A stretch of DNA of 53,592 nucleotides from a virus (Duplodnaviria > Caudoviricetes). The DNA lies in the IMG/VR virus record IMGVR_UViG_3300009788_000120, positions 1 to 53,592 of that record. One strand, written 5' to 3'. The first letter of the stretch is position 1, and each line of letters opens with the position of its first letter. A model generated the notes under the pieces. The model ran no database searches. It saw only the letters and a program-made list of their open reading frames with translations, and was not told the origin of the DNA. Position numbers and translations under genes: made by a program. Positions 2,585-53,357 of this stretch are shown piece after piece.

Positions 2585-2656
2585 CCGTTGCAACGAGCCC
2601 TCGACACGCGAGGGCTGCATGGAGCGTTCAAGCCCCAACAACCAAGGAGCGAGCAC

Positions 2657-4243: not shown

Positions 4244-4245
4244 TC

Positions 4246-5470: not shown

Positions 5471-5476
5471 TCCCAG

Positions 5477-5511
5477 CCCCGACCGGGCTCTCTCCCGGTC
5501 GGGGTTTTTTT
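5477..5511 (+). terminator. rho-independent terminator
   Basis: CCCCGACCGGG-ctctct-CCCGGTCGGGG (11-bp stem) followed by T7. Confidence 0.9.
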
Positions 5512-5531
5512 GTGCGTGCTATCGTGGGTCG

Positions 5532-11658: not shown

Positions 11659-11932
11659 GCGCTTCCCTAGCGGCCCCCAGAAGCCCGAAGGCCTCTCCCC
11701 TACCGACCTCGGTGAGCTTGTAGTAGCAGCGCCGGCGCCGGCCCGCGGCCGCCTCGTCGATCTCCTCTCGCCGTCCAGAGATCCAGCCTATGGCCTCGAG
11801 CCGATGCAGGATCGGGTAGAGACTTCCGGACTTGAGGCCGGCCTCAGATGCGATCTCGAGGCCGTAGGCTTCGGGCTGTCGAAGCAGCGCGGCGAGGACC
11901 CTCAAGGTCTGAAAACTGAGCGTGGCACCCAT
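11615..11932 (-). CDS. PadR-family winged-helix transcriptional regulator
   Basis: YGLEIA...GSLYPILHRLE..GWI...RRRCYYKLTEVG is the PadR signature; TGGTATAGT lies 7 nt upstream of the ATG. Confidence 0.9.
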   Translation of the reverse strand: MGATLSFQTLRVLAALLRQPEAYGLEIASEAGLKSGSLYPILHRLEAIGWISGRREEIDEAAAGRRRRCYYKLTEVGRGEAFGLLGAAREALRPSRNRQGRAVGT

Positions 11933-34473: not shown

Positions 34474-34498
34474 GGCGAAGTGCTAAGATGATTCCGCT

Positions 34499-34681
34499 AT
34501 GGCAAAGAGCTTCCTTTCGTTGGATGAACGGATCCGAGGACTGCTCAAGAGAGTCCGAGGCGGGCTGGATATCAACGAGGCCCTGATCGAGCTCGAGCGC
34601 CTAGTTGAAGACGAGAGGAAGCGCCGGCGTCAGACCGCGCGGCTGCTGCGCATCGCAGCCCTGACAGCCCGATTCCCGTGA
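34499..34681 (+). CDS. small hypothetical protein
   Basis: Preceded by TGCTAAGAT extended -10-like element; coupled to next gene. Confidence 0.55.
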   Translation: MAKSFLSLDERIRGLLKRVRGGLDINEALIELERLVEDERKRRRQTARLLRIAALTARFP

Positions 34682-36683: not shown

Positions 36684-37399
36684 GACGGTCGCCTGACGCC
36701 GGCGAGGCCTGTGGCCCTCAGATCACTCGATACCGTTGCCAGGGAGGCGCCGACGTCGGCGACGATGGCCTTCAGGTCCCAATGCTCGCCCGCTAGCCAT
36801 CTCATCCGGAGCTCGGCGACCCGAGCCCGTCGGGCTCGTCGAGCCGAAGCCGCCGGGTTGTCGGTCTCCCAGGCTTGCCGCTTTGTAGCCTCGGAGGCTC
36901 CTACAGCGGCCTCCGGAGCTCGGAGTCGAACGAAATTCCTCGACACGTCGAGCCTTCGCGCTATGGCCCGCACGCTGAGCTTCTGTGACGCGAGCTCGTG
37001 CGCCCGAACGGCGAGCCCGTCATAGTCTTTGCCGTTTCTTCGCGCATTCATGATCTCGTCGGCTCGGCTCTTATCGCGGAGCACGCCGCGCCGGCGAAGG
37101 TGCACGTTGACCCATTCTTGCGACGGCGCCGGGTCTCCGGGATGAAGCTCTTTGAGCCTGGCGACGACTCCCCGACAGCTGAGCTGCTCGTCGACGTACA
37201 GCCGCTCCGCCTCGGAAACAAGACGCACCGTGTAGGTTGGGCAGGTTCCCATGTGCCCGGCCTCGCAAAGTCTCTTGTATGCCCATGTTTTCCCGACGTG
37301 GCCGGCGGCCGCGGCCCGCGACAGGGAGCGGCTTCGCTCATACTCTCGCAGCACTCGAGACCTGTGCCAGGCTCCGTATCGACGACGTCGACCCATCAC
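36680..37399 (-). CDS. multi-HTH DNA-binding protein
   Basis: SLSRAAAAGHVGKTWAYKRL, LSVRAIARRLDVSRNFV, LKAIVADVGASLATVSSDL. Confidence 0.7.
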   Translation of the reverse strand: MMGRRRRYGAWHRSRVLREYERSRSLSRAAAAGHVGKTWAYKRLCEAGHMGTCPTYTVRLVSEAERLYVDEQLSCRGVVARLKELHPGDPAPSQEWVNVHLRRRGVLRDKSRADEIMNARRNGKDYDGLAVRAHELASQKLSVRAIARRLDVSRNFVRLRAPEAAVGASEATKRQAWETDNPAASARRARRARVAELRMRWLAGEHWDLKAIVADVGASLATVSSDLRATGLAGVRRPS

Positions 37400-40300
37400 G
37401 CGGCCCTCGCGGTCAGTGCCCGGTAGATCGCCTCGCCGACCGCCAGGGAGGTGGCGGCCGCCGCCTGGCTCTCGGGATCAGCGCCGCAGGCCTCGAGCGC
37501 TCCCTGAATCGACAGGCCGTCGAGCTGTAACGATGCCGTGACCTTCGCTGCGATAAGCTCGAGGGCGGCCTGCTGCGCGGTCCCGGGGTAGTAGGGCCAG
37601 TCGACGGTGCACGGCCGGTCTTGGCCGATGCGGTGGATGCGACCGTTGGCCTGGCGGTAGGTGAAAGCCGAGTAGTCTGACTCGTACCAGAGCGTGCGAC
37701 AGAAGCTGACGAGGTTGTTGAGCCCGGTGCGGACGGCGACCGGATTGACCAGCATCACCGAGCATTCTGGGCCGTTGATGTGCTGATCGATCCAGGCCTC
37801 CCGCGTTCTGGCCGAAACGCTGCCGGCGTTGAGCCACTCGACCTTGACCCCCAGCTCTTTGCGTAGCATGGACCGGAGCCGATGCGCCAGGTGAGCGGTT
37901 CCCGTGTGCCGGAGGAAGACCATCGTCCGATCGCCGGCGGCCAGCGACTCTCTCAAGCTCTCGACGAGGAAACGCTCTTTAGGCGTCCGGATCGAGGCCG
38001 GGAACTGCCGACCGACTGCCAACACTGGATCTTCGATGTCGCACCCGTCGGTGTAGGCGATCACGAACTCCGGTTGGTCATCGGTACACCGATCCAGATA
38101 GGACGGCAGCTCGAGCAGCTGCCCCAGGAGCTTGCCCTGGAGCGGTGTGAACATATCCCTTTTGATCGCGCTGAGTAGCTCGGTCTCGAGCCGTCGATAC
38201 TCCTCCATGATCTCGCGGTCGAGGTCGGTATCCAGGTCGAGAGGGTGTCTCAGCTCGGACATCGGCGGGAGCTCTTCCTCCAGATCCGTCTTGTGGATCG
38301 TGGCCGCGATCGGCAGCAGATGATCCATGAGGAAGGCCGGCAGGATGCCCGGCGCCTCGCCCAACCGCCGAGCTCGGCAGCTGGTTTCTCGATCCGACTG
38401 GCTGCCGAAGTCGACGTCCTCAACCTTCACGCCCTCTCGAGGCTCGTAGAGCGTCTTGCGGTAGCCGTAGCGATCGACGAAGGCCGCGACGTCGCCGCGG
38501 TCGAAGGTCTCGCGGAAGCGGGCACTGGCCGCCCAAAGATTGGCGAAGAGCGAGCTTGCATACCCTCCCATGAAGGATCCGCTCAGCAGCAAGGTCAGCT
38601 TACCGAGAGCGAGCAACCGCTGCGCGGACTTCGACTGCGCCGAGCCCTGGTTGTTGTTCTCGTGCGCTTCGTCCAGAGCGAAGAGGTCGAATCGTTCCGG
38701 GTAGCGGCGGACGATCGCCTTGGACAACGGGTAGCGTCGAGGCCCGGAGATCGCATGGAGCATCTCGTCGCACGGCTCGCTCTCACTCCAACTGGCAAGA
38801 TTCCAGAGCAGGTCGAGCGCTTTCGAGAGATCCTCTCCCGCGCCCGGCGGGCCGGTGGCCGGCGCCGAGGCGAAGGGCCCATGTCCAATCGAGCAGCCGG
38901 TCATCTCCAGGGCCGCACTCCGGATCATCTGAACCCGCTGGCCGTGTCCGTGCTCGACGCCCCCCATGCCCCTGAGCTCGACGCCCACCGGGTCGCTCGA
39001 GCCCAGGAACCGGGCCAGGCTCTTGACGATCGCCAGCCGCGGGTAGAGCTCGCCATAGACGTCTAGCGACTCCTTGACCAGAAGCCCGGTAACCGTGGCC
39101 AGCGTCCGGCGCAAAACGCCGGCGACGGTTGACGAGTCGGGCGTGACGCTCTTCTGCTTCCCCAGATGTCGGAAGCCCTCGACAACGGCCCGCACCGTCT
39201 CGTCCGTCGGGATCAGACCGCGAGCGGCGACCGACAGCCGCTCGACGTCCACTGCCTCGGCGTTCTGCGGGCGCAGGGTGGTCGCCGTGCATCGCAGGCG
39301 GCGGCGAGCGCAGACCACGGCCTCTTTCGGTAGCCCAGCGCCGCACCGCGGGCAATGATCGACGGACAAGGGCTCGACCGTCGACCCGAGCTTGGCCTTC
39401 TCCCGGCTGAGGATGTAGATCTCGGCGTCGGCCTCGAGATCGGAGATCGACGTCACTTCAATCGCCCGCCAGCCTGGGAGCACGGCGGCCGCCTGATCAA
39501 GCCACGACGACACGAGGTGAGGCGGGCACTGCACGAGCATCCTGCGTACCGTGGGAAGCTCGCCGGCTCGGTCGAATCCCAGGCTCTGGAGCTGGGCGAC
39601 GGTCGCCGCTCGATTGTCGGCCGAGAGGGCGTTAGCGACCTCGAGCGTCACTTGAGACTTCCCGGTGCCGACCTCTGCAACCACAAAAACGTTCTCGAGG
39701 CCGGATCCGGCCGCTGCGATCTTGAGCGTCGCCTGGATTGCGTGAACCTGGCAGCGGTAGGCGGGCCTGGCGGTAGGCGGTAGCTCGATTCGATCGTCGG
39801 GCTCGGCCGGCGAGTGGAGCGGCGGGAACTGCCGTCGCATGAGATCGGCCAGCCCGTCGCTGTAGCAGGCGAGAATGTCGGCCGCGTTCATCTCCTCAAG
39901 CACCTCAGCGCCGCTCGGCGCGGCGCCGGGCACCGGGCTGAAATAGTTGTAGGTGTCGAGGCGCAGAGCGCAGAGCGACAGCCGTGGCTCTTCGACCCGG
40001 GTACTCGAGCTCTCCCCCGCCTTGATCTCTACGCTCTCCCTCGAGAAACGCCCCTTCAGCAGCAGGGATGGATAGCGGTCGGGATCATTGGGCTCGAGGC
40101 GGTGTCCGTTGAAGACGCCGGAGGCAACGGCCAGAGCGAGGTGCGCGGGCCGCGGGGGCATGGCCGTCGTATAGCTTCTGCCGATGAGATCGTCGAGACT
40201 GAGCCCTGGGCCGATGCCGGTGGGCGGGGTCCAGGCGTCGATCGTCGCCCTCAGATCCGCCTGGAGGATTTTGCAACCTTCGAGGCCGGCGCGCAGATCG

Positions 40301-41004
40301 CGATCGAAGGTGTCTGTCAGCTGAACCCGAAGAGGGTTCTGGATCTTTTCCGGCAGAGGCCAGAGGTGATCGGGATCCGCCCAACTCGCGATCAGCGCCT
40401 CGGCCTCGACCCGGGTCTCTTCACTCCGGCAGGGTGATCGCCGGCGTCGAGCGTAGAACGCCACCTGGCTGTAGTCGGTGAACTCGGGCTCCGGGAACTT
40501 CCAGCATCGGTGATCGCGATAGTGAAGGGCCAGGGTGCGCGCGCTGGCCGGCAGCGAGGTCGCCGGCACGATGAATAGGAGCACGCCGCCCGGCGCCAGG
40601 GCCTGTGTGAATCGCTCGAGGAAGCGCTCCTCCAGACGCTTGTGCTCGCGGTCTTGATCGTAGGGCGGATTGAGATGGAGGACGTGCGCGCCCTCGTATC
40701 TCGAGTCCCAGGCCAGGGAGAAGGCGTCGCCCTCGATACATCGGCCACGGCCATGGAGCTTTCGTTGACAGGCCGCGGCCCTCTCCTTCTCCATCTCGCA
40801 AGCCAAGATCTTGGGCCGTAGGTCTTCGCAGTCTTCATACCAGAGTGCCCGAAGCGCATCGATCGCCTCGCCGTCGCCGGCGCACGGATCGAGCAGGACC
40901 AAGCCGTCTTGGTCGGGTAGCTCAATCCCAGAGGCTAAGCTGCTGAGAAGCCGGGCCGGGGTGGGGTAAAATCCGGCCAGGGCTTGGCTCTCGAATCTTG
41001 CCAC
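37396..41004 (-). CDS. fused amino-DNA methyltransferase (DUF6094-like) and SF2/SNF2 helicase, ~1200 aa
   Basis: GFYPTP, LLDPCAGDG, LNPPYD; AEVGTGKS, LDEAHE, LLSGS, TGLN, QANGRIHRIGQ. GTG start after GAGGAGG (alternative TTG at 41010). Confidence 0.88.
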   Translation of the reverse strand: MARFESQALAGFYPTPARLLSSLASGIELPDQDGLVLLDPCAGDGEAIDALRALWYEDCEDLRPKILACEMEKERAAACQRKLHGRGRCIEGDAFSLAWDSRYEGAHVLHLNPPYDQDREHKRLEERFLERFTQALAPGGVLLFIVPATSLPASARTLALHYRDHRCWKFPEPEFTDYSQVAFYARRRRSPCRSEETRVEAEALIASWADPDHLWPLPEKIQNPLRVQLTDTFDRDLRAGLEGCKILQADLRATIDAWTPPTGIGPGLSLDDLIGRSYTTAMPPRPAHLALAVASGVFNGHRLEPNDPDRYPSLLLKGRFSRESVEIKAGESSSTRVEEPRLSLCALRLDTYNYFSPVPGAAPSGAEVLEEMNAADILACYSDGLADLMRRQFPPLHSPAEPDDRIELPPTARPAYRCQVHAIQATLKIAAAGSGLENVFVVAEVGTGKSQVTLEVANALSADNRAATVAQLQSLGFDRAGELPTVRRMLVQCPPHLVSSWLDQAAAVLPGWRAIEVTSISDLEADAEIYILSREKAKLGSTVEPLSVDHCPRCGAGLPKEAVVCARRRLRCTATTLRPQNAEAVDVERLSVAARGLIPTDETVRAVVEGFRHLGKQKSVTPDSSTVAGVLRRTLATVTGLLVKESLDVYGELYPRLAIVKSLARFLGSSDPVGVELRGMGGVEHGHGQRVQMIRSAALEMTGCSIGHGPFASAPATGPPGAGEDLSKALDLLWNLASWSESEPCDEMLHAISGPRRYPLSKAIVRRYPERFDLFALDEAHENNNQGSAQSKSAQRLLALGKLTLLLSGSFMGGYASSLFANLWAASARFRETFDRGDVAAFVDRYGYRKTLYEPREGVKVEDVDFGSQSDRETSCRARRLGEAPGILPAFLMDHLLPIAATIHKTDLEEELPPMSELRHPLDLDTDLDREIMEEYRRLETELLSAIKRDMFTPLQGKLLGQLLELPSYLDRCTDDQPEFVIAYTDGCDIEDPVLAVGRQFPASIRTPKERFLVESLRESLAAGDRTMVFLRHTGTAHLAHRLRSMLRKELGVKVEWLNAGSVSARTREAWIDQHINGPECSVMLVNPVAVRTGLNNLVSFCRTLWYESDYSAFTYRQANGRIHRIGQDRPCTVDWPYYPGTAQQAALELIAAKVTASLQLDGLSIQGALEACGADPESQAAAATSLAVGEAIYRALTARAA

Positions 41005-41764
41005 GTTCAATATCCTCCTCGAAGTAGAGCGCTGTCTGAGTCTTGATCAGCTCCTCGATCTGGCCGTGACTCGCTCGGCAGAGCGTTGGCCGCTCGAGGC
41101 CGGGGATCTGTTGACCCGGGAAGATGCCGACCTTCGACCCGTAGACGATATTGGTCAGAGGCGTCAGGAGCTTCTCCTCGAGGGCGGCGGCGACCAGCTG
41201 CCGGTGGAAGCCGATATCCTTGACCAGCGGAAGACCGGTTCTCCGATCGAGGTAGGCGGTAGTCACCGCCGAGGTCGCGACCTCGATGGCTTCTTCGTCC
41301 GGCAGATCATCGCCGAGCAATTCGCGCGCCGCCGGGACCTGAGACCTCACCCAGGCGGTCGACGGCGCGGCGATGAAGTCGATGCGCGGCTCCTCGGTTG
41401 ACGGCGGATCGAGGTCGAAGAGCCGCGGCAGGTAGGCGGTGACCACCGCGGTGTCTCCGGGCCCTGGAGCCTGGAGGAATCTGAACCGAGCCGAGCGCGG
41501 GATTTCGAGCTGCTCTTTCCCCCATCGGTCCGTCTCCTTCATTCGTCGGATTTTCCGCCCGGTTCGCACGTTGGCCTGAAACGCTCGGCACTCCTGAGTG
41601 GTGCCGGTGAAGGCCAGCCAAACGGGCCGGAGGCAGGTGTCGGAGGCTCCGCTACCGAGTTCCCAAAGCCGGTTGGCGATGATGTAGCCGATGAGGCGCA
41701 CGGAGAAGGCGCGGCTCTTGCCGCTGTCGTCGTTGGCCTTGGGGCAGACGATGAGGCGATCCAT
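40922..41764 (-). CDS. hypothetical protein, partner upstream of the MTase-helicase
   Basis: ATG coupled to upstream TGA; typical codon usage. Confidence 0.7.
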   Translation of the reverse strand: MDRLIVCPKANDDSGKSRAFSVRLIGYIIANRLWELGSGASDTCLRPVWLAFTGTTQECRAFQANVRTGRKIRRMKETDRWGKEQLEIPRSARFRFLQAPGPGDTAVVTAYLPRLFDLDPPSTEEPRIDFIAAPSTAWVRSQVPAARELLGDDLPDEEAIEVATSAVTTAYLDRRTGLPLVKDIGFHRQLVAAALEEKLLTPLTNIVYGSKVGIFPGQQIPGLERPTLCRASHGQIEELIKTQTALYFEEDIERGKIREPSPGRILPHPGPASQQLSLWD

Positions 41765-42568: not shown

Positions 42569-42762
42569 CGGATTCTCCGGCTGACCCTCCAAAGCGGAAT
42601 CGGCTCCTTTTGGCCGACGGGGACGAAGACCCGGACGCCGTGCTGGCGGTAGCTGGCGCCGGCCGCCTCGTACTCTTTTCCGTCGAGGGTCACGACCACT
42701 GCTCCCCGGGGGAGGACGTCGTCAGGTCCACGGTCAGTTCTCATCTCTGTCAGCGTGTCCAT
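42565..42762 (-). CDS. small hypothetical protein
   Basis: Preceded by AGGAGCGAGC-ATG. Confidence 0.65.
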   Translation of the reverse strand: MDTLTEMRTDRGPDDVLPRGAVVVTLDGKEYEAAGASYRQHGVRVFVPVGQKEPIPLWRVSRRIR

Positions 42763-42779
42763 GCTCGCTCCTCTCTATG

Positions 42780-42819
42780 GTGAAAGGCGCTCGGCTGGTC
42801 TCCGACGCCGAGCGCCCGG
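42780..42819 (-). terminator. possible weak terminator/processing hairpin
   Basis: GGCGCTCGGC...GCCGAGCGCC 10-bp stem followed by TTTCAC on the minus strand. Confidence 0.4.
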
Positions 42820-42938
42820 GTGGCGGGAGTTCGGGACGGTGGGAAGATCCCTCGGCGACCGGAGAGGGCGTGTCAGGCGCCCGCCGTCGAGGGTTGGATT
42901 CAACGCTCCAAGATTCCTCCACTCGAGGCGTTGAGTTT

Positions 42939-43634
42939 TCACGCCACTCCTCCGAGCAGCGATCCTTGACGCGGCGGCCGAGGCGGGTCGCCGGTTTTCT
43001 TGCGCTTCGGCGTCGGCTCGACGTCGGCGCCGTAGTGGATCATGAGCTCCCGCATCCGCCAGTAGCGCAGGCGAGAGCCGCGGCCGACGTCCTGGTGAAC
43101 GCGCACCGCGACGTGCCGGGCATAGGACAGGGGCATCGAGCGCATCTTGGCGCTCGCCTTGTACGCCTCCCAGAGACCGATTCGTAGGAAATGGCACTCG
43201 GCCTCCGAGCCGTCCGGCAACTCGACTAGCCAGAGAACGCCGGCGACGTTGCCCGCCGCCGCGGCCTTGAGCAAGCCGGCCACCTGATGATCCTTGACCT
43301 GGTCGAAGGCCAGGCGCGCGGCCAGGTCGCCGGTCTTGGCCGCGAACCTTCCCTGCGTCCGCTTGCACTCGAGGGCGAAGACAATTTGCGGGGAGATGCC
43401 GAGCGGCGCCGAGGGACAAAAACAGCCGGCGGCCGGCGCCGTGACTAGGAAGTCAAACGGGTATTTCGGGCTGAATCGCGTGTTGCTACCCGGGGCCTCG
43501 TTGTCACCGCCGAACCACGTTGCGGGATCCGGGAACTTGTAGCCCCAGACGGTCGCCGACCGGACGGGGGAGGCGAGGGGCGGCAGAGACCGTCCCACCT
43601 CCTCCTGAAATATTCCTCCGGGGCCCTTGGCCAT
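42939..43634 (-). CDS. RecU-like Holliday junction resolvase (PD-(D/E)xK)
   Basis: YKFPDP, PFDFL, FALECKRT, QVKDHQV..L, GNVAGVLW. Confidence 0.75.
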   Translation of the reverse strand: MAKGPGGIFQEEVGRSLPPLASPVRSATVWGYKFPDPATWFGGDNEAPGSNTRFSPKYPFDFLVTAPAAGCFCPSAPLGISPQIVFALECKRTQGRFAAKTGDLAARLAFDQVKDHQVAGLLKAAAAGNVAGVLWLVELPDGSEAECHFLRIGLWEAYKASAKMRSMPLSYARHVAVRVHQDVGRGSRLRYWRMRELMIHYGADVEPTPKRKKTGDPPRPPRQGSLLGGVA

Positions 43635-43638
43635 CTCT

Positions 43639-45168
43639 CTACTCCGGCGGCTCGAGCGGCACGCCCGGATCAGTGACCCTGGCCGCCCTGGCCTTGTCGA
43701 TCGCCTCGATGCAGGTCTTCCGATGCTTGCCGGCGAAGGCTCCGGGCTTCCCGGTCTCCGTCTCCGTCAGCTTGCGCAGGGCCGGCAACGACATGCCCGT
43801 GAGGTTCTCTTCCGGCGCGGGCGCGGGCGCGGGCATCGGCTTGTGTTCCTCGAGAAGAGCCTTCTCTTCATCGGTCAGGACATTGGGGGGCACCTCTTCG
43901 TCGCCGGCGATCGGCTCGCCATCCTGGTCGACGTACTCCGCGTCGATCTCATCGCCGTCGGCCAACTCGATCTCGGCGTAGGCCTCGAGGACGGCCGGCG
44001 GTACAGCGCCTACGTTTCCTTGGGTGAAGGACATCACCTTGAGACGCTCTTCGGAGGCCCACTCAGCAATGTCCTCGACCGGAACGGCGAAGCCCAGATC
44101 CAGGAGCCGATCGGCGAGCACGGAGGGATGGAGCGTCATCGAGTAGGCGTCCAGACCCTCCGGGAGAGGCTCTCCGGTGGCGGCAAAGTGCCGAATCTCC
44201 TCCCAGGGCACCATCGTCAGGTCCGCCAAGACGGTGGGCCGGACGTGAAAGCAGCGGCTCAGGAGCTGAGTCGAGAGCTCATGGTCATCCAGAGCCGGCT
44301 CGGCGTCATCCGGGCCGATGATCGAGATCGAGGCCAGTCCATCGGACTCGGGCGCCGGCGGTACGTCGACCTCTGACCCCAGAGCCTGGCGGCGCTGGGC
44401 GTCGGCCCAGGACACGGCGCGATCACGGAACTCGGAGCCCCACTCGGCGACGGCCTCCGCCGCGGCGTAGTAGCCGAGAGCGGCCAGCAGCAGCGCCAGC
44501 GCGGAGTCGTCACCGAGGTCGAGCTCCAGGTCCGAGAGGATCTCCCGGCGCATCGACGGGACGCGATCATCGACTGGGGGTGCGGTCTCTGGGTCTTCTC
44601 CGCCGAATTTCCCGGCGGCCTCCGGCATGCCCGGCAGAGCCGCTACCAACCGCGGTGTCTTCGGCGTCTTGCCGGCGATCATCCCTTCGCACCACGCCGC
44701 GATCTCTTTGCGCTCCGAGGCGGTGAGACCGTCGATCGCCTCAACGCCCGGCCATGCGCGGTTCGGATCCGCCTCCCAAAGCAGGGAGACGATCGCCGCG
44801 GCTGGCGTTTCGTCGGACGATTCCGGCTCGGCCCGGCGGCCGGCGTCGTTACGATCGACGGTGGTTTTGAAGAAGCCCTCCACCATCTCGCGCAGCTCCC
44901 CGTGGGTTACGGCGTGGTCGTGCTCGCTGCCGGGAAACAGCGGGCCGGTGACCGTCGCCTCCTGATCTTCATCGGCCTGGAGATAGGCGGCGAGCAGCCG
45001 GCGCGCGCAGTGTGCAGCGGCGGCAATCGCCGTCTGCATGAAGGTCTTAAACGAGCTCATCCAGAGCGTGGGAAGAGGAAGATCGAAGGCTTCGACCTCC
45101 GTCTCCAGGCCGATGACCGTGTCGGTCAGGGCCATGATTTCCTGCAACGTGTTCTTCTTCTTCGCCAT
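43639..45168 (-). CDS. acidic hypothetical protein
   Basis: GGAGG RBS before MAKKKNTL; long acidic ORF; C-terminal helix-extension-helix-like MSLPALRKL...HRKTCIEAI. Confidence 0.75.
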   Translation of the reverse strand: MAKKKNTLQEIMALTDTVIGLETEVEAFDLPLPTLWMSSFKTFMQTAIAAAAHCARRLLAAYLQADEDQEATVTGPLFPGSEHDHAVTHGELREMVEGFFKTTVDRNDAGRRAEPESSDETPAAAIVSLLWEADPNRAWPGVEAIDGLTASERKEIAAWCEGMIAGKTPKTPRLVAALPGMPEAAGKFGGEDPETAPPVDDRVPSMRREILSDLELDLGDDSALALLLAALGYYAAAEAVAEWGSEFRDRAVSWADAQRRQALGSEVDVPPAPESDGLASISIIGPDDAEPALDDHELSTQLLSRCFHVRPTVLADLTMVPWEEIRHFAATGEPLPEGLDAYSMTLHPSVLADRLLDLGFAVPVEDIAEWASEERLKVMSFTQGNVGAVPPAVLEAYAEIELADGDEIDAEYVDQDGEPIAGDEEVPPNVLTDEEKALLEEHKPMPAPAPAPEENLTGMSLPALRKLTETETGKPGAFAGKHRKTCIEAIDKARAARVTDPGVPLEPPE

Positions 45169-45190
45169 TCTCGAATCCTCCAAAAGGTGG

Positions 45191-45225
45191 TTGACTTGCG
45201 CGTCGGCCGTCGACCGTGCTACGCT
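45191..45225 (+). promoter_or_regulatory. putative promoter for the antisense small RNA
   Basis: TTGACTTGCGC (45191-45201), then extended -10 TG-C-TACGCT (45217-45225); 18-bp spacer from TTGCGC. Confidence 0.55.
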
Positions 45226-45230
45226 TCCTC

Positions 45231-45334
45231 TGACGACGGGCCTCTCCGGTGCTTTGCTCGCTCCTGGTGTCAGGCTCCTGTGTTCTCGATCCGATCCGGC
45301 CTCGCGGCGCAATCCGCGAGGCCGGTGTAGTTTT
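45231..45334 (+). ncRNA. putative trans-acting anti-RBS small RNA (~100 nt)
   Basis: Intergenic, antisense to the flanking genes. The 5' stem-loop carries UUUGCUCGCUCCU, complementary to the AGGAGCGAGCA RBS motif; the 3' end is a 12-bp hairpin plus UGUAGUUUU. Confidence 0.6.
45296..45334 (+). terminator. intrinsic terminator-like hairpin oriented for plus-strand transcription
   Basis: CCGGCCTCGCGG-cgcaat-CCGCGAGGCCGG; T-rich tail on the plus side only. Confidence 0.6.
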
Positions 45335-46596
45335 CAGGCGGCGGCCGTCAGGATTCTCTTCGTCTCGGTCACCGCCCGCTCTTTGACGGCCGGCGGTTGA
45401 TCTGAGTGCGAGATCTCGACCCAGGACCGGGCGGGCATCTCGATGACCCGGCCCGCCAGCTCCTGGAGCTCGACGGCCCGATCGTAGTTTTTGACGTCGT
45501 TCGAGGCCCGGGTGATCGCGGAGGTGAAGCCCCACTGGCTGAGGTTGCCGCCCCGGATCAAGTGCGTCAGGACGTCGTTGCTTTCCGGCTCGGTGAGGCC
45601 GAGCTGCTGGCGAGCGGTCTCCACCATGGCGGGCGGTTGGGCGACGATCGGCAGCTGGTCGGCAACGCTCATCCTGGCGCAGACCCGGGCGAAGGCGCCT
45701 TGGTCCATCGCGTGACGGAGCGCATCTCGTAGCTTGAGCAGGAAAGTCTTGTTCATGCTCTGCTGGGTGTCGGAGGCGTACTTGACCTCGCCGAAGACGT
45801 CGACCTCTTTCCCTTTCTGGCGGCCACCCGAGTGCCAGCCGCCGAGCCCGCGGCCCACGGTCATGCCGTTGGAGCAGACCAGAGTATGGATCATCGGCCG
45901 GAGCCAGACGGCGCCGTCCCCGATCTCGGAATTCTTCAGCAGGATGGCGGCGGAAACCGCCTCGCCGACCGCCACCTCGCCCTGGATGCCGGGAAAGACC
46001 ACCTGGAGGTAGAGCTTGTTGCTCGTGACCTCGCAGGATTTGATGTCGATCTCCTCGGTTCGTTCGGAGAGGACGCTGAGCGCCGTCCCCAGCACCACGT
46101 CGTTATCCAGCACTCGGTAGGAGCTCGAGAGGAAGGCTCGCGCGCGACCGTCGAGGGTGCGGACCATTCGCTCTTCGGGCTGACGCCGGAAGTGGGTGTT
46201 GACCGTCTCGCAGAGGAAATCCGGCATCTCGGCCTTGAGCCGCTTGACGTAGGTCATCGGGATCTTCAGGCGCCCGGCGACCTGGGTGAGGGCGTGGGTC
46301 GTGAGGCCGAAGACCTCACCGTGACCCGCGGTGAGCCCGATGCCGCTGGATCTCGTGTCCATCACCTCGAGCTTGAGGGCGCCGCCCGTCGGCACGAGGG
46401 CCTGTTGGGATCGGGTGATCAGCTGCGGCAAGCTGCCGTTGCCCGCGGCGATTGCCTGGGGGTTGGCGATCGGCTTGGGCGGCGGTTCTTCGTACCGTAG
46501 CGCGAGAAGACGGGTGTCGCCCTTGAAATCGCGCTTCTCTTCTGCCTGGCGTTGGACCTCCGCGGACAGGTTTTGGAGGCTTCGTCCCTGGATCAT
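45334..46596 (-). CDS. DUF932-like protein
   Basis: RMVRTLDGRARAFLSSSYRVLDN, LKNSEIGDG, LVCSNGM, LSQWGFTSAITRAS. Confidence 0.8.
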   Translation of the reverse strand: MIQGRSLQNLSAEVQRQAEEKRDFKGDTRLLALRYEEPPPKPIANPQAIAAGNGSLPQLITRSQQALVPTGGALKLEVMDTRSSGIGLTAGHGEVFGLTTHALTQVAGRLKIPMTYVKRLKAEMPDFLCETVNTHFRRQPEERMVRTLDGRARAFLSSSYRVLDNDVVLGTALSVLSERTEEIDIKSCEVTSNKLYLQVVFPGIQGEVAVGEAVSAAILLKNSEIGDGAVWLRPMIHTLVCSNGMTVGRGLGGWHSGGRQKGKEVDVFGEVKYASDTQQSMNKTFLLKLRDALRHAMDQGAFARVCARMSVADQLPIVAQPPAMVETARQQLGLTEPESNDVLTHLIRGGNLSQWGFTSAITRASNDVKNYDRAVELQELAGRVIEMPARSWVEISHSDQPPAVKERAVTETKRILTAAA

Positions 46597-46650
46597 GCTC
46601 GCTCCTTGTCTGAGGTGGCCGCTCGGTGCATCCGGCGACCCCGTGAGACT

Positions 46651-46698
46651 CGATTCTACTTTGGGGCTTTACAAATGTAAAGAGGCAAAGTAAGATCG
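46651..46698. promoter_or_regulatory. symmetric divergent promoter pair with central palindrome (genetic switch)
   Basis: Rightward TTTACA-17-TAAGAT; leftward TTTACA-17-TAGAAT; core CTTTACA-AA-TGTAAAG. Confidence 0.85.
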
Positions 46699-46720
46699 GT
46701 GACGAAAGGAGGTCAGCACG

Positions 46721-46984
46721 ATGAAGACTGACTTGGACGTAGACACCGTTCGGCGTGATACGGATCGGCTGATGATCGTCGCCTTCAACATGGTCAAGGG
46801 GGAGCTCGGGTGCTCTTCGGATCACGAGTTGGCGGCCAGGCTGGGGCTCTCTGCCAGCTATACTCACCATGTGACGGGGACGCGGTCCTGGCCCGCCGCC
46901 TCGATGCACAGAATCGCCGCCGCGTCCGGCAGGACGGTTGACGCCCTGCTCGGCGACGCTAGGGCATTGGCGGCCGCAGCGTGA
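46721..46984 (+). CDS. Cro/C1-type HTH regulator
   Basis: AAAGGAGGT RBS; SDHELAARLGLSASYTHHVTGTR.W....MHRIAAASGRTVDALLG. Confidence 0.8.
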   Translation: MKTDLDVDTVRRDTDRLMIVAFNMVKGELGCSSDHELAARLGLSASYTHHVTGTRSWPAASMHRIAAASGRTVDALLGDARALAAAA

Positions 46985-47271
46985 CCGTCTCGGCGGCCAG
47001 AGTGCATAGCACGGGGCTGTCGAAGATGATTGACGGCTTCGTTGCGCTCGCGACCGACGTGAAGATTCCGCAAGGCCTGAGGGTCGCGGCGGCCGTTGAG
47101 TGCGCCAACCAGGCGGCCGTCCAGGCGACGATAGATGGCCGCTTTCATCCGGTCCGGAGTTCGGGTTCCACGACCTGGCGCGAGGTGCCTGAATGGCTCG
47201 ACCCCTACCCCGACCGCGGCCGACGACACCTCTTCACCCCGACCACGTTACCGACGCCTTCGCCTGACTGA
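46981..47271 (+). CDS. hypothetical protein
   Basis: GTGA overlap with the HTH gene. Confidence 0.45.
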   Translation: MTVSAARVHSTGLSKMIDGFVALATDVKIPQGLRVAAAVECANQAAVQATIDGRFHPVRSSGSTTWREVPEWLDPYPDRGRRHLFTPTTLPTPSPD

Positions 47272-47290
47272 AACACAAGGAGCGAGCAAC

Positions 47291-49396
47291 ATGCACATCG
47301 TCCCCCCGAAGACCGCGTCCCTTCCCTTCGAGATCGAAAACGTCGGCCCGCGCATCGGCCCAGAGGGTCAGCCGAGTCGGCTCACCGGGACTCTTCCTCC
47401 CGGCGTCCTCGAGTTTCTCGGCGGCATGGCCGCCGGCAAGAGCCATCACATTTGGGCGCTGTTGGCGGCCGCCGGCGCCGACATTCCCGACCAATTCATC
47501 GAGGTGACCCGCGGGGCCGACGTAGGCCGCGTGCGACTCGGCCCCGACTCTCTGATCATCAAGGCCGGCGAGATGCCGGAGTCCGGGAAGCGCGGACTCG
47601 CGGCGCCGGCCGAGCCGGTCGACGTCAGTCCGCTCTCCGTGCTCTTCCGTCCGGACGCCGTCGACCCGGCGGTCAGCCGGAAGCTACGTATCACCGCGTT
47701 CTTGAAACTCGCTCGGCTCGAGCCGACCCGCGAGCGGCTGGCGAAGCTCTGCGCGGGCTCGGCCGAGCTGCTCGAGTGGATCGTGGCCAAGGTCGCCGGC
47801 GACAAGAAGATCTCAACGCTCGACGTCGCGCTCAAGAGGCTGACGACCGAGGCTCACCGCCTCGCCCGAGAAGATCACGAATCCAAGATCAAGGCCGCGG
47901 CCAACGATCGCATCCGCCTGGAGGGCCGCGTCGAGCAGCTGCTGAGGGAGGCGGCCGCGCCATACGGCATCACTTGGTCGATCGAGCCGGCGGAGGAAGA
48001 CGACGACGAGCAGGCTGCGGCCAGGGCTGCGGCCGTCAACCAGGCTCGCGAGCTGCTGTCCGTCGAGCCCGGCAAGGCGCCGGCCGACCTGGAGGCCGCC
48101 CGTCGAGAGTTCGGCCAGCTCGAGGCTCGCCGAGAGGCTCGAATAGCCTTTGACGCTCTACTCGCGGAGGTGGGCGAGACCGAAGAGGTCATCGACACGG
48201 CGGGCGCTGAGGCCGAGGTCGAGCGCCGACAATCCGCGGCCCAGGCGACCCGGGCGGCCGCCGATCAGGCGAACAGCCAGCGGGCGAAGGCCGACGCCTC
48301 GTTGCAGATTGCGGCCGCGGCCGTGAAGACGGCTCGAGAGCGACACGCCGAGACCGAGGCGAAAATCGACGGAATCTCTGAGGATCAGGCTGCTGAAGAA
48401 TTGTTGGCTCAGGAGCTGGTGAGGAAGCTAGCGGAGTTTCGATCGCGGATCGAGGCTCTTGAAGCCGCTCAGGCGAGTGCCTACGAGGAAGAGAGCGAGC
48501 GGAGCATCGCGGTTGCGACGGCTGAGGATGCAGCGAAACTCCGCCAGGCGGTCGCCGCGGCGGCGGTCTCCGACGCCGAAGCGGTCGAGCTCGCCTCAAC
48601 CGAAGCGGCTCGCGAAGCCGAGGGCGCCCGGATCGAGCTCGCCCGGCTCCAGAAGGCGCAGGCGTCCCAGGCTGAGCGTCAGCTCATCTTGTCGAAGAAG
48701 CCGGCCGACGTCGGCCCCGAAGAGAACGAGGTTGATAACGCGGCCAACGAGCTCGACAAACTGGCCATCGCCCACCGCCTCTTCGGGCTACGCTCGACGT
48801 TCGTCGATACCGATCGGGAGTACTTGGCGGCGGTCGAGCTCGAGCGCGTCGAGCGTCAGGCGTCCGACGCGCTGCGTGACGTCGCTCGTAACGCCCACCG
48901 GCGGCTCTACAAGCTGCTGACGGAAGAGGGCGGCATCCAGGGAGTCGAGATCACGGAGGAGGGCGATATCCTGATCGTTGACGAGTACGAGGGCGAGGAG
49001 CGCAAGCGCGACGTCGCGGACCTGGCGCACGTGTCGGAGGGCGAGAGAATGTCGACCTTCCTGGACATGGCGCAGCCCTACTTATCGGGCACCGGGATTC
49101 CGGTGATCCACTTGGAGGGCCGCTACTGGCGAGACCTGGATGAGACGCGCAAGCGAGAGCTCGCGGCGAAGGCCTCGAGGCGCGGCCAGTGCATCCTGAC
49201 CGAGGTACCGACCGACGAGGACGACACCCGGCCCTGCTCGATCGAGACCGGTAAGTTGATCATGGTCGAACGCGAGCCGGGAGTCTGGACCGCGGACCAA
49301 CGCAAACTCGGCGGCGGAGCCGACATCGAGGGATACTTTCAGTCCCGGGTCTACTACCGGCGGTTGACGGCGCCGGCCGAGGAGTCGACGTCATGA
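47291..49396 (+). CDS. Rad50/SbcC-like coiled-coil ATPase
   Basis: FEIENVGP, Walker A GGMAAGKS, long Ala/Glu coiled coil, signature-like VSEGER, degenerate Walker B VIHLEG; AGGAGCGAGCA RBS. Confidence 0.7.
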   Translation: MHIVPPKTASLPFEIENVGPRIGPEGQPSRLTGTLPPGVLEFLGGMAAGKSHHIWALLAAAGADIPDQFIEVTRGADVGRVRLGPDSLIIKAGEMPESGKRGLAAPAEPVDVSPLSVLFRPDAVDPAVSRKLRITAFLKLARLEPTRERLAKLCAGSAELLEWIVAKVAGDKKISTLDVALKRLTTEAHRLAREDHESKIKAAANDRIRLEGRVEQLLREAAAPYGITWSIEPAEEDDDEQAAARAAAVNQARELLSVEPGKAPADLEAARREFGQLEARREARIAFDALLAEVGETEEVIDTAGAEAEVERRQSAAQATRAAADQANSQRAKADASLQIAAAAVKTARERHAETEAKIDGISEDQAAEELLAQELVRKLAEFRSRIEALEAAQASAYEEESERSIAVATAEDAAKLRQAVAAAAVSDAEAVELASTEAAREAEGARIELARLQKAQASQAERQLILSKKPADVGPEENEVDNAANELDKLAIAHRLFGLRSTFVDTDREYLAAVELERVERQASDALRDVARNAHRRLYKLLTEEGGIQGVEITEEGDILIVDEYEGEERKRDVADLAHVSEGERMSTFLDMAQPYLSGTGIPVIHLEGRYWRDLDETRKRELAAKASRRGQCILTEVPTDEDDTRPCSIETGKLIMVEREPGVWTADQRKLGGGADIEGYFQSRVYYRRLTAPAEESTS

Positions 49397-49835: not shown

Positions 49836-50216
49836 ATGTGGGAAAAACAGAACCTGGTGACTCAGTCCAAAGGCGATCAGTGGAAGTGCTCACATTGCGG
49901 CTATAAATTCTGGTCTTGTCGGTTGGGAGCCAACGACTCGACCTGCCCGAAGTGCGATTGCTTAGCCGGTCTCGAGCACCCCGTTGAGATGTCCGGGAAG
50001 CCGCTCGGCGGCTGGTACGCGCCGGCCGCGGAGAAGGCCTACGACTCTCTGGTCGAGCTTCGGGCGGCGGAGAGTTCGAGACCGTCATGCGCGGGCTGCC
50101 GAGGCCCGTTGGTCATCGTTCCTCGGACGAGGCATCCGCTCTCCGACCTCTGGAGACTTGAGCGGCAAGATGGCCTGGCGCTGATGTGCTGCGCCGGCGA
50201 CTGCAAGGAGCCTTAG
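49836..50216 (+). CDS. zinc-ribbon protein
   Basis: WKCSHCG...CPKCD, CAGCRG...CCAGDC. Confidence 0.65.
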   Translation: MWEKQNLVTQSKGDQWKCSHCGYKFWSCRLGANDSTCPKCDCLAGLEHPVEMSGKPLGGWYAPAAEKAYDSLVELRAAESSRPSCAGCRGPLVIVPRTRHPLSDLWRLERQDGLALMCCAGDCKEP

Positions 50217-50449
50217 GGGGTGCGCGGCCTGAACTCTACGCAGCGGCGGGCCGGTGCGCTCTGTGCGGCGGAGACATGAAGAAGAGGCTCGGGTTGTCGA
50301 ATAGCGCGACCCTGGAGGACGACGGACCTGGACGTCTGCCGCGGCTGTCAAATGTTCCACGGCTGCAAGGGCCATCGAGATCTCGACCGGCCGGAGCTGA
50401 TCGTGGAGAGCGTGGATTGGGATCGAGAACTTAGCAAAGGAGCGAGCAA

Positions 50450-51052
50450 ATGAACATCGACGAGGTACTCAGAAAACATAGGATTTGGATTCAAGATGGA
50501 GACGGCGGCGAGAGGGCCAACCTCAGCGGGGCCAACCTCAGCGGGGCCAACCTCAGCGGGGCCTACCTCAGCCGGGCCAACCTCAGCGGGGCCTACCTCA
50601 GCCGGGCCTACCTCAGCGGGGCCAACCTCAGCGGGGCCAACCTCAGCGGGTCCGACCTCCGCGGGGCCGACCTCAGCCGGGCCTACCTCCGCGGGGCCAA
50701 CCTCCGCGGGGCCAACCTCAGCGGGGCCGACCTCAGCGGGGCCGACCTCAGCGGGGCCGACCTCAGCGGGGCCTACCGACACGAAGGCTTGGCGCTCGAC
50801 GGCCGTGTTGACTGCGGCTTATCGCTGGGATACTTCTGGTTGGCCTATACCGCAAATCGCCACGCTTATCTAGAGATCGGGTGCCATAAAAACCGTCGCA
50901 CGGTTCGACAGTGGCGCCGAGATCTTCCGGGTATGACTCGGGGGTACTTTGCCTCAGACCGGAAGGAGGGCGAGGCAACGATCAGGGCTCTGCTCGATTT
51001 CGTCGAGTCAACCCTTGGCGTCTCAATTCCCAGCGAGGAGAGCTCTTCATGA
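50450..51052 (+). CDS. pentapeptide repeat protein
   Basis: HRIW...[13 protein letters not shown]..., 17 A(N/D/Y)LxG-type units, C-terminal LEIGCH; AGGAGCGAGCA RBS. Confidence 0.92.
50516..50770 (+). repeat. 17 x 15-bp tandem repeat (consensus GCCAACCTCAGCGGG)
   Basis: Directly visible; encodes the pentapeptide repeats. Confidence 0.95.
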
Positions 51053-51417: not shown

Positions 51418-51447
51418 GTAGAGCGAGGCGGAAAAGGAGCGAGCAAG

Positions 51448-53050: not shown

Positions 53051-53357
53051 GGCGGAGGCACGTCAGGTGGAAGTGTGGAAAAAATCTCGCGCCGGTGAAG
53101 AAAACGGCGCTATAATCGGAAACGCCAGACCGGTCGGAGGGGAAGCCGAGCGCCTATTCCGGGCTCTCGCATTCTTCCGCCGGCTCTGGAGCGAGCTCGA
53201 CGGGCTGCAAAAGGGTCTGACCCCAGACCCGGATTTTGACGGCCTGGTCAACGACGTCAGGGTGCTCGACTACGAGACCCTGATCAGCCGATTGCGGGAG
53301 TCTCCCGCGGTCGAATCAACCACCACCCCTGGATCAGGGGTAGACAGGAGCGAGTGA
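53037..53357 (+). CDS. hypothetical protein
   Basis: GGGGAG RBS; TGATG coupling downstream. Confidence 0.5.
   Translation: MAATEAEARQVEVWKKSRAGEENGAIIGNARPVGGEAERLFRALAFFRRLWSELDGLQKGLTPDPDFDGLVNDVRVLDYETLISRLRESPAVESTTTPGSGVDRSE

Follow-up and report, generated by a model that had tools for sequence, protein, structure and literature searches.

A start-less copy of a start-associated sequence between two early genes of an uncultured phage: sense-strand element or seed of an antisense RNA?

Start-associated sequences (SAS) have, according to the literature excerpts that we consulted, been a known yet unexplained feature of some phages since 2011. The window analyzed here, 53,592 nucleotides of DNA from an uncultured phage of a subsurface sample (CheckV completeness estimate, 65%), contains nine exact copies of an 11-nt sequence, AGGAGCGAGCA, one of which lies between two genes with no start codon beside it. 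What is this orphan copy for, and on which strand is it read? The first-pass annotation of this DNA had proposed that, read in complement on the plus strand, it serves as the seed of a small antisense RNA directed against all the other copies.

The nine exact copies compare with 0.07 expected for the whole window; none of 100 shuffled windows reached nine, and only one copy with a single mismatch was present. The sites, with the hairpins found upstream of some of them, are as follows.

1598 to 1608, plus strand: SAS before ATG 1611; 8-bp hairpin at 1525-1548, 49 nt upstream
2645 to 2655, plus strand: SAS before ATG 2657 of a ProQ C-terminal-like domain protein; 8-bp hairpin at 2596-2616, 28 nt upstream
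3779 to 3789, plus strand: SAS before ATG 3791 of a 150-aa gene
42762 to 42772, minus strand: SAS that overlaps the start codon (ATG) of a leftward gene of 65 aa; 10-bp sense-strand hairpin at 42786-42816, 13 nt upstream
45255 to 45265, minus strand: exact but start-less orphan SAS, whose plus-strand complement is the proposed seed
46596 to 46606, minus strand: SAS that overlaps gene A at its ATG
47278 to 47288, plus strand: SAS before ATG 47291 of a 701-aa gene
50438 to 50448, plus strand: SAS before ATG 50450 of a pentapeptide-repeat protein
51435 to 51445, plus strand: SAS before ATG 51448 of a 91-aa gene
53346 to 53356, plus strand: degenerate SAS, AGGAGCGAGTG, with ATG 53357 directly 3′

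Eight of the nine exact copies were located 0-3 nt 5′ of an ATG or overlapped it, in the sense orientation relative to the gene, and AGGAG was present within all eight. The ATG directly 3′ of AGGAGCGAGTG at 53346 makes this a tenth, degenerate start-linked copy. Genes run both ways in this phage, and SAS copies therefore occurred on both strands; all nine exact copies and the degenerate tenth were on the coding strand of the local transcription unit. The copies were confined to 1.6-3.8 kb and 42.7-53.4 kb, with none in the terminase-to-tail block (about 6.9-35 kb), and the genes that they lead were exclusively non-structural (early) genes. The product of the ORF starting at ATG 2657 matched the ProQ C-terminal-like domain (PF24203, E 1.3e-6); its sequence found no match in the PDB. 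The earlier claims that many genes of this phage have one standardised ribosome-binding site in common, and that one of its nine copies lacks an adjacent start codon, both held, and the repeat matches the start-associated sequences described in other phages. The GCGAGCA part of AGGAGCGAGCA is presumably unlike the stretch that commonly extends pairing with the 3′ end of 16S rRNA, and the consensus may not be that of the host.

The orphan copy was located in a 165-nt untranslated gap (45169-45333) between two leftward genes, with the following features in and around it.

43639 to 45168, minus strand: gene B (509 aa), which matched no family and has no relative; GC3 0.829
45176 to 45181, minus strand: gene B Shine-Dalgarno sequence GGAGGA, 7 nt before ATG 45168
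45191 to 45196, plus strand: −35-like TTGACT, at a non-canonical spacing of 23 nt from TACGCT
45217 to 45225, plus strand: extended −10-like box TGCTACGCT, with a putative RNA start near 45232
45296 to 45325: G+C-rich hairpin, 12 bp without mismatch, loop of 6 nt, 8 nt downstream of the gene A stop
45326 to 45336, read on the plus strand: T-rich run TGTAGTTTTCA; on the minus strand, a stop codon and its context, TGAAAACTACA
45334 to 46596, minus strand: gene A, 420 aa, SAS-led; its relatives carry DUF932 (PF06067)
46653 to 46696, both strands: divergent sigma-70-like promoters, TTTACA-17-TAGAAT (minus) and TTTACA-17-TAAGAT (plus)

From the orphan copy to the ATG of gene B downstream is 87 nt, and within reach on its 3′ side there was no ATG, GTG, TTG, CTG or ATN. 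The plus strand at 45253-45265 reads UUUGCUCGCUCCU, so that the antisense copy described by the first-pass annotation does exist as a complement; the copy itself, however, is on the minus strand and is sense to both flanking genes. By virtue of that strand it is sense to the leftward operon, as are all other copies to theirs, and the label antisense holds for this site only if a plus-strand RNA exists.

We propose, giving it an even chance, that the orphan copy is a sense-strand SAS on the leftward mRNA, for which no dedicated plus-strand RNA is needed. In this view AGGAGCGAGCA is an SAS in which the Shine-Dalgarno core AGGAG is joined to a phage-specific extension, GCGAGCA; it is kept letter-perfect 5′ of some of the non-structural genes, and would be read on the mRNA. 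The order of the leftward early operon would be a promoter near 46.65 kb, gene A, the hairpin, the orphan SAS, and gene B; judging by their sequence, the divergent promoters at 46653-46696 would be the putative drivers of this gap-containing operon and of the rightward SAS genes. The orphan SAS is most probably either a ribosome-binding module whose start was displaced by the arrival or remodelling of gene B, or an extra site on the polycistronic mRNA for the SAS reader, which could be a nuclease, a regulator of translation or the 30S subunit itself. The 12-bp hairpin would then be an intercistronic mRNA element, like those upstream of three true SAS. The action of the motif on mRNA, the identity of its reader and the history of the orphan copy are all things that we infer; the reader, whether RNA or protein, may be encoded in the missing part of the genome.

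The strand of all ten sites, the close linkage of eight exact copies to an ATG and their AGGAG all favor this sense-strand proposal, as do the described SAS systems, which in the available excerpts of PMC3203893 behave alike and include rare non-start copies. The surroundings of the orphan point the same way. Gene B, which is without relatives, comes with a GGAGGA of its own, spaced 7 nt from the start codon. Sense-strand hairpins were present upstream of four of the nine copies (1525-1548, 2596-2616, 42786-42816 and 45296-45325), three of these copies being true, start-linked SAS, which argues that the order of stop, hairpin, spacer and SAS is a normal layout in this phage. An alignment of the four hairpin-SAS gaps revealed no homology beyond the motif. 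The 8-mer TGAAAACT occurred four times relative to 0.36 expected; it forms the stop context of gene A and also that of the leftward gene ending at 42939, and as both genes stop with TGAAAACT followed by a hairpin, the plus-side T run next to the orphan has a sense-strand counterpart elsewhere. By reading, the minus strand of the gap contained no −10-like TANNNT, and gene B must therefore be transcribed through the hairpin. Three observations weigh against the sense-strand proposal: a start-less copy that is exact in 11 of 11 positions is unlike a decaying relic, unless the event was recent; the opposite strand has a rare extended −10 box and then a plus-facing U-rich hairpin, in the right order and at the right places; and the use of a U-tailed terminator is seen at 5475-5506. 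As a separate observation, another 11-mer, GGATCGAGAAC, was located upstream of both the orphan copy and the copy at 50438. It had three exact copies in the window, one of them within a late gene, and its one-mismatch count was equaled by 3 of 100 shuffles; as a shared upstream element it was too weak, and we rejected it.

The second reading, that of the first-pass annotation, is that a plus-strand RNA of ~100 nt, starting near 45232 from the extended −10 box and ending at the hairpin at 45296-45325, contains the exact SAS complement in its 5′ domain and pairs in trans with the eight exact and one degenerate start-linked SAS, occludes their Shine-Dalgarno sequences and acts as a global repressor or timer. 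We regard it as a doubtful but real possibility, and consider it unlikely that one such gap-encoded RNA shuts down or times all nine SAS-led genes in both arms of the early region. It would account for the exactness of the orphan copy, which the sense-strand proposal does not readily do, and the presence of a ProQ C-terminal-like domain in one SAS-led product is in keeping with it. So is the fact that Pope et al. left "RNA or protein" undecided for the SAS reader, in the excerpts available, although the same excerpts describe TM4 and Pixie as having SAS without any reverse copy (PMC3203893).

The promoter-like sequence that the annotation had pointed out is supported only in its TG-extended −10 form. 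Besides the box TGCTACGCT there are just 11 other TGNTANNNT sites in the window, a total of 12 per 107 kb of both strands, so that about 0.04 would be expected in the gap. Three other TGNTANNNT sites were positioned 6-9 nt 5′ of the ATG of an ORF (at 5532; at 11932, before a PadR-like gene; and at 34499), which argues that this type of box is a working promoter here. In contrast, the hexamer TACGCT (45220-45225) matches TATAAT at only three of six positions and is G+C-rich, there was no −35 sequence at 16-18 nt from it, with TTGACT lying too far away, and a sigma-70 scan of 44500-46000 gave no sites.

The perfect 12-bp hairpin and the T-rich tail, TGTAGTTTTC, on its plus side only, were as the annotation had described them. 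It was the strongest perfect hairpin in the window, with energies of −27.5 kcal/mol (z −3.7) on the plus strand and −28.9 kcal/mol (z −4.9) on the minus strand, and the terminator scan flagged it on the plus strand (12 pairs, tail TGTAGTTTTC), with a tail that is interrupted and lies within the recurring stop context. The plus-strand tail UGUAGUUUUC is part of TGAAAACT, which detracts from its value as a terminator of the proposed RNA since the same sequence recurs after the stop of another leftward gene; the gap with the hairpin at 42786-42816 had no clean plus-strand terminator on folding. The only canonical terminator in the window was at 5475-5506, and its T7 tail shows that this system makes use of terminators with a U tail.

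Folding of the candidate RNA gave a divided result. The 5′ stem that had been proposed, 45230-45240 with 45263-45273, can be drawn by reading (11 positions, two G-U, one mismatch); it was, however, absent from the minimum-energy fold, and the 64-nt 5′ domain was no more stable than its shuffles (z +0.93 on the plus strand and +0.39 on the minus strand). The whole candidate RNA had a z of −1.64, owing to the hairpin. As for the accessibility of the loop, the 7-nt UUUGCUC was open in the ensemble, as pairing in trans would require, whereas the CUCCU part of the seed was partly paired, and opening the 11-mer would cost 6.2 kcal/mol. Rfam gave no match at the gathering score over the whole window, and neither tRNA nor tmRNA was found in it.

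Pairing to the targets was likewise mixed. With G-U pairs allowed, 11-13 contiguous pairs formed at all nine SAS initiation regions, and the 13 contiguous pairs with two G-U claimed for AGGAGCGAGTG at 53346 were seen by reading; but 6 non-SAS regions among the 64 initiation regions tested also gave 11-13 contiguous pairs. An unconstrained duplexfold ranking of the same 64 regions placed only three SAS regions in the top seven and formed long, unrealistic duplexes, which made it uninformative. The annotation had further suggested that pairing extends upstream of the motif; this failed, as pairing was broken at position −1 in eight of eight targets, with 0 nt gained upstream and a mean of 1.12 nt gained past the 11-mer. 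When each copy in turn was used as a mock antisense, the flank pairing of the orphan copy ranked seventh of nine, and there was no co-adaptation within the genome between its flanks and the targets. We treat the plus-strand RNA as a hypothesis and not as a finding because the positive evidence for it consists of the extended −10-like box and the hairpin with its interrupted U tail, and the controls that were run were neutral or negative.

A plus-strand RNA could instead act in cis only, as a sar- or OOP-type antisense, fully complementary to the gene A-gene B junction of the leftward mRNA, that leads to cleavage or decay of that mRNA, in which case its anti-SAS sequence would be incidental. 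This third reading, which we think improbable, draws on the same promoter-like and terminator-like features, and inherits the same weak promoter and tail. Its position resembles that of OOP, sar and c4 as described in the excerpts of PMC12197685, and the hairpin would stop transcription of the plus strand but not of the minus strand, as an antisense gene embedded in an operon requires. The candidate RNA (about 45232-45334), however, stops 51 nt short of the gene B Shine-Dalgarno sequence at 45176-45181, leaving it and the start of gene B uncovered. Finally, translation driven by the orphan SAS, either of gene B with its N-terminus extended to TTG 45312, back to which its frame is open, or of a leader peptide with a non-canonical start, such as the 11-codon frame opened (by reading) by the AAG that directly follows the motif and is one letter off ATG, is very improbable and was rejected, because GC3 was 0.646 in the 48 in-frame codons upstream of gene B, equal to the base composition of the gap (0.63), versus 0.829 in gene B, TTG 45312 lies within the hairpin and has no Shine-Dalgarno sequence, the motif has no usable start codon near it, and the strong GGAGGA-7-ATG points to 45168 as the real start. 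By GC3 the gap does not read as a translated N-terminus, the finding that the annotation had said would refute its RNA, so the RNA model is not refuted on this ground.

Searches for relatives of the locus found none. Megablast of 43000-47500 against the phage collection gave no match; there were no locus relatives in viral contigs (queries gene B, gene A, the capsid protein, the 701-aa protein and terminase), in metagenome contigs (query gene B) or in genome contigs (query gene A); and among 5.8 billion proteins gene B matched only itself. The best relatives of gene A were at most 41% identical and those of the terminase 62, 58 and 57%, and the structural proteins were at most 39% identical to those of any phage among the matches listed. 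The pattern of SAS plus ATG occurred in viral contigs only as single-match loci among the matches listed (80 of 113 stretches), which is uninformative. The source DNA run was the only sequencing run found to contain DNA of the window, with no RNA run found; it yielded a single near-identical contig, apart from three short pieces of unrelated sequence, and the gap was without variants.

The best-described SAS are those of the Cluster K mycobacteriophages, a 13-bp AGGAG-containing repeat, GGGATAGGAGCCC, in 11-19 copies, restricted to non-structural genes and mostly before an ATG, although a few copies, Anaya site 7 among them, are not at a start (excerpts of Pope et al. 2011, PMC3203893); in the parts of the 2024 and 2025 literature consulted their function is still unexplained. 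As those excerpts describe them, they have much in common with AGGAGCGAGCA: a short, asymmetric AGGAG(C) repeat, near-exact in about 10-19 copies, oriented with the gene, a few nucleotides before mostly ATG, with conserved letters past the Shine-Dalgarno core. They differ in being 13 nt rather than 11 nt long, with only AGGAGC common to both, and the phage studied here is an unrelated one with genes running both ways; the 17-bp inverted-repeat extension (ESAS) of Cluster K was not found in the window. Anaya had 16 forward copies and one reverse copy in the 32.8 kb examined, and whereas its odd copy is reversed, in the gp96-gp97 gap, the odd copy here is sense to its operon. Judged by its sequence, AGGAGCGAGCA is an SAS analogue and not a Cluster K member by descent, since only AGGAGC is common, there was no phage DNA match and the structural proteins fell at or below the 39% given above for the matches listed. 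The window is an independent, unrelated example in an uncultured phage, and its different 11-mer argues that the SAS strategy arose more than once. The copy without a start, opposite which the other strand has signals resembling a promoter and a terminator, makes the RNA answer concretely testable, with a bearing on the mycobacteriophages as well; if true, an RNA acting in trans would be the first mechanism for motifs of the SAS type. The literature searched contained no antisense RNA tied to start-associated sequences and, among the matches listed, no shared-RBS RNA regulon of a phage and nothing relevant on conserved RBS motifs.

Citrobacter phage Mordin has a 26-bp repeat 5′ of eight genes, which its authors liken to SAS (excerpts of PMC4611695). 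As described there, it too lies upstream of gene starts, the eight genes being in one genome arm; it is longer, of another sequence and in another type of phage, and we compared it by description.

Among RNAs, OOP, sar and c4 are antisense RNAs of phages that map between cistrons or at the ends of genes and, like P22 sar and lambda OOP, the small candidate RNA would be made from the opposite strand inside an early operon and end at a hairpin terminator (excerpts of PMC12197685). OOP, in the same account, covers the end of cII, whereas the candidate would cover only a start-less SAS copy. P22 sar overlies the ribosome-binding site that ant actually uses, whereas the candidate would miss both the Shine-Dalgarno sequence and the start of gene B. 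The P4 CI RNA is an immunity RNA with loops that pair around the ribosome-binding site. The P1/P7 c4 RNA is described in the same way (excerpts of PMC12197685). Both are cut from the same strand and operon as their one or two targets; the RNA proposed here would be a separate, opposite-strand transcript with about nine targets and, if real, would make an antisense regulator of a phage act on a standardised target throughout the genome instead of on one or two sites.

For the sense-strand proposal, a model is provided by two proteins of phage T4 that read initiation regions common to many early genes: RegA represses the translation of numerous early mRNAs, and RegB is a nuclease that cuts GGAG in early Shine-Dalgarno sequences. 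No homologue of either turned up in the searches made, which had other aims. Sites for RegA and RegB also occur outside starts, as the orphan copy does, and whereas the T4 sites are short and degenerate, the 11-mer here is exact.

The 11-mer AGGAGCGAGCA, called here the SAS (start-associated sequence, a name borrowed from Cluster K mycobacteriophages), was present in nine exact copies in the whole window, where 0.07 were expected and none of 100 shuffles reached nine. When up to two mismatches were allowed, 28 copies were found versus 34 expected and just one copy carried a single mismatch, indicating that the family consists of the nine exact copies and is not a fuzzy cloud. Eight of the nine were located 0–3 nt ahead of an ATG or overlapped it, on the coding strand of the gene concerned, in agreement with the first-pass annotation of a standardised ribosome-binding motif ahead of many genes:

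1611, 2657, 3791, 47291, 50450 and 51448, plus strand: ATGs led by exact SAS copies
46596 and 42762, minus strand: ATGs led by exact SAS copies
53346, plus strand: degenerate tenth copy AGGAGCGAGTG, adjoining the ATG at 53357

The SAS-led gene at 2657–3442 encodes a 261-aa protein matching the 'Phage ProQ C-terminal-like' domain PF24203 (E 1.3e-6; 29.5 bits versus a cut-off of 27), for which a sequence search of the PDB gave no match; an RNA-chaperone-like protein would bear on any RNA-based control, though ProQ presumably binds RNA mainly through a part other than this domain. The SAS-led gene at 50450–51052 encodes a pentapeptide-repeat protein (PF00805, E 5.6e-55) by means of 15-bp tandem DNA repeats, with ACCTCAGCGGG occurring 11 times.

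Gene calls and family searches gave a rough map of the window, a complete linear IMG/VR virus record (53,592 bases, 65.5% G+C, 65% complete by CheckV estimate):

6918–8351 (terminase), 12953–14125 (capsid protein) and tail genes, to about 35.6 kb, plus strand: late block, from gene map and families
46596 down to about 36 kb, minus strand: leftward early operon, from gene map
46721 off the right end, plus strand: rightward early region, from gene map
46681 to 46653, minus strand: sigma-70-like promoter TTTACA-17-TAGAAT, between the two early arms
46668–46696, plus strand: sigma-70-like promoter TTTACA-17-TAAGAT, back-to-back with the minus-strand one

The rightward early region probably continues at the contig's left end (genes 1611–5470). 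The −35 boxes of the divergent early promoters form a 7-bp inverted repeat, CTTTACA AA TGTAAAG (46667–46682), with an operator-like look, and the first rightward gene (46721–46984) has a weak match to a family of phage repressors, phrog_4583 (E 3.8e-4). The leftward operon carries at its distal end a gene (37396–41010, minus) for a 1204-aa protein in which a DUF6094 methyltransferase-like N-terminus is fused to a helicase C-terminus (PF19587, E 7e-15; phrog_62, E 6e-37). Two ORFs missed by the codon-usage gene caller, 49836–50216 (126 aa, several Cys-x-x-Cys pairs, no family match) and 50277–50432 (51 aa, ending just short of the SAS at 50438), lie where the G+C content looks reduced. The 481 nt at 1130–1610, ahead of the first SAS gene, have no called gene; they contain an A+T-rich inverted repeat at about 1215–1268, hairpins at 1341–1362 and 1525–1548 and a T7 run at 1400–1406, and may serve a regulatory role or encode a non-coding RNA.

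The ninth exact copy (45265..45255) falls within a gap of 165 nt separating two leftward genes:

46596..45334, minus strand: gene A, 420 aa, SAS-led; relatives carry DUF932
45168..43639, minus strand: gene B, 509 aa; no family match and no relative found

As had been claimed, this copy does not stand beside a start codon, none of any usual kind following it. Its strand, which the first-pass annotation did not state, is minus, so that it is sense to its own operon as are all other copies. Gene B has its own Shine-Dalgarno sequence, GGAGGA, 7 nt ahead of its ATG. Its frame is open for 48 further codons back to TTG 45312, and we considered and rejected the gap as its N-terminus (a 43639–45312 ORF, as raised earlier): the GC3 of these codons was 0.646, like the gap base composition of 0.63, versus 0.829 for gene B, and TTG 45312 lies inside a hairpin, from which we concluded that the gap is untranslated. 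The sole sequencing run containing the window, a DNA run labelled subsurface metagenome that may be its source, yielded just one near-identical contig, with zero variants in the gap.

The most economical reading, to which we give an even chance, is that the orphan copy is a start-less sense-strand SAS inside the leftward operon mRNA. Sense-strand hairpins also precede three true SAS copies (1525–1548, 2596–2616 and 42786–42816), so the order stop, hairpin, spacer, SAS seen in the gap is an ordinary intercistronic layout of this phage. The copy could be what remains of a ribosome-binding module whose start the acquisition or remodelling of gene B displaced, or it could be an additional site recognised by the SAS reader, whatever that is. 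In T4, RegA and RegB are protein readers of early initiation regions common to many genes; the portion missing from this incomplete genome may code for a SAS reader.

The first-pass annotation proposed instead a plus-strand RNA of about 100 nt, starting near 45232 and ending in the hairpin, whose anti-SAS seed would repress the SAS-led genes in trans, a proposal that we regard as unlikely and against which the ordinary layout of the gap already counts. Its promoter was to consist of TTGACT (45191–96) and TACGCT (45220–25); these are 23 nt apart and a sigma-70 scan of 44500–46000 gave no site, so this −35/−10 pair was not upheld, whereas TGCTACGCT (45217–25) does fit the extended −10 form TGNTANNNT. 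Sites of this kind number only 12 on both strands of the window, as many as chance predicts, with about 0.04 expected in the gap. Three of the 12 lie 6–9 nt ahead of ORF ATGs (spans 5517–5534, 11948–11930 and 34481–34501):

5517, plus strand: extended −10 box TGCTATCGT before ATG 5532; ORF without Shine-Dalgarno
11948, minus strand: extended −10 box TGGTATAGT before ATG 11932; PadR-like gene without Shine-Dalgarno
34481, plus strand: extended −10 box TGCTAAGAT before ATG 34499; ORF without Shine-Dalgarno

These layouts suggest leaderless transcripts and, by extension, that this type of box may be a working promoter in the phage; the gap box is the weakest among them: three of its six positions agree with TATAAT, and its central bases are G+C. 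The box at 5517 follows a canonical terminator and would head the late block. The PadR-like regulator (105 aa; 11615–11932, minus) matched TIGR03433 at E 3e-9, short of the curated cut-off. Its gene runs counter to the surrounding plus-strand late block and shares 44 nt with the end of the 10135–11658 gene.

The perfect 12-bp hairpin at 45296–45325, with a T-rich tail on the plus side only, is there as described and is the strongest perfect hairpin of the window (−27.5 kcal/mol on the plus strand, z −3.7). The one canonical terminator in the window (5475–5506, tail T7) indicates that U-tailed terminators are in use here. On reading the minus strand of the gap we saw nothing resembling a −10 box, so transcripts of gene B must run through the hairpin; this fits a terminator acting in the plus direction only. 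Against a plus-strand RNA, the tail is interrupted (UGUAGUUUUC) and is the complement of TGAAAACT, that is, of the gene A stop codon and five bases, an 8-mer with four copies in the window versus 0.36 expected (0 of 100 shuffles reached four):

45329–45336, minus strand: gene A stop context, then hairpin
42934–42941, minus strand: stop context of the leftward gene ending at 42939, then hairpin
1428–1435, plus strand: in the non-coding stretch 1130–1610
11910–11917, plus strand: inside the PadR-like gene, other strand

Because the 8-mer recurs at another leftward stop with a hairpin, the T run may have a sense-strand cause.

The loop UUUGCUC was open in the folding ensemble, but the CUCCU part of the seed was partly paired and freeing the 11-mer cost 6.2 kcal/mol; the mirror-image minus-strand fold required 6.1 kcal/mol, so that structure favours neither strand. 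The proposed 5' stem was absent from the minimum-energy fold, and the 64-nt domain preceding the hairpin was no stabler than shuffles (z +0.93 plus, +0.39 minus; −1.64 for the whole candidate RNA). This domain formed 11–13 contiguous pairs at all nine SAS initiation regions, as the RNA model expects; with G-U allowed, however, six non-SAS regions among the 64 initiation regions tested did equally well, and the 13 pairs emphasised earlier are thus not special. In a control that took every exact copy once as mock antisense to the remaining eight, pairing of the orphan copy beyond the 11-mer averaged 1.12 nt (seventh of nine; range 0.25–3.12), and the anticipated upstream extension was 0 nt in all eight targets; this control gave no sign that its flanks fit the targets. 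At present the RNA model is hypothetical, supported by a weak promoter-like box and a hairpin; if true, it would supply the first mechanism for SAS motifs, which makes a bench test worthwhile. An antisense RNA acting purely in cis, like sar or OOP, is quite improbable; it would leave the real Shine-Dalgarno of gene B uncovered.

No relative of the gap locus was found in any collection searched (phage, viral, metagenome and genome contigs; proteins). A query of 43000–47500 had no DNA match among 50,697 phage records, and the best identities to any phage among the matches listed were 39% (terminase) and 34.5% (capsid protein); the nearest terminases overall had 57–62% identity. In PMC3203893, the Cluster K SAS is described as a 13-bp repeat, GGGATAGGAGCCC, with 11–19 copies confined to the non-structural genome half, 3–7 bp ahead of mostly ATG starts, combining AGGAG with conserved letters unable to pair with 16S rRNA; K1 phages have one reversed copy each, in Anaya the copy at site 7 is in sense orientation and away from any start, and TM4 and Pixie have the SAS without a reversed copy. 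SAS systems thus do not need one, a further point against the trans-acting RNA. The 32.8-kb right part of Anaya held 16 forward copies and one reversed, the latter (31871–31883 of that part, 59870–59882 of the record) in the 385-bp gp96-gp97 gap and preceded by a canonical terminator; putative rightward transcripts across this gap would carry anti-SAS. A similar 26-bp repeat precedes eight genes of Citrobacter phage Mordin (PMC4611695), and papers from 2024 (PMC11373665) and 2025 (PMC12699233) still describe the SAS role as unexplained. As in Cluster K, the motif of this window is a short AGGAG-type repeat before ATG starts, with a non-start copy; the lack of a DNA match and the low protein identities to the phages listed make it an independent analogue and not a relative. 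We conclude that it is a new, independent example of the known but unexplained SAS kind.
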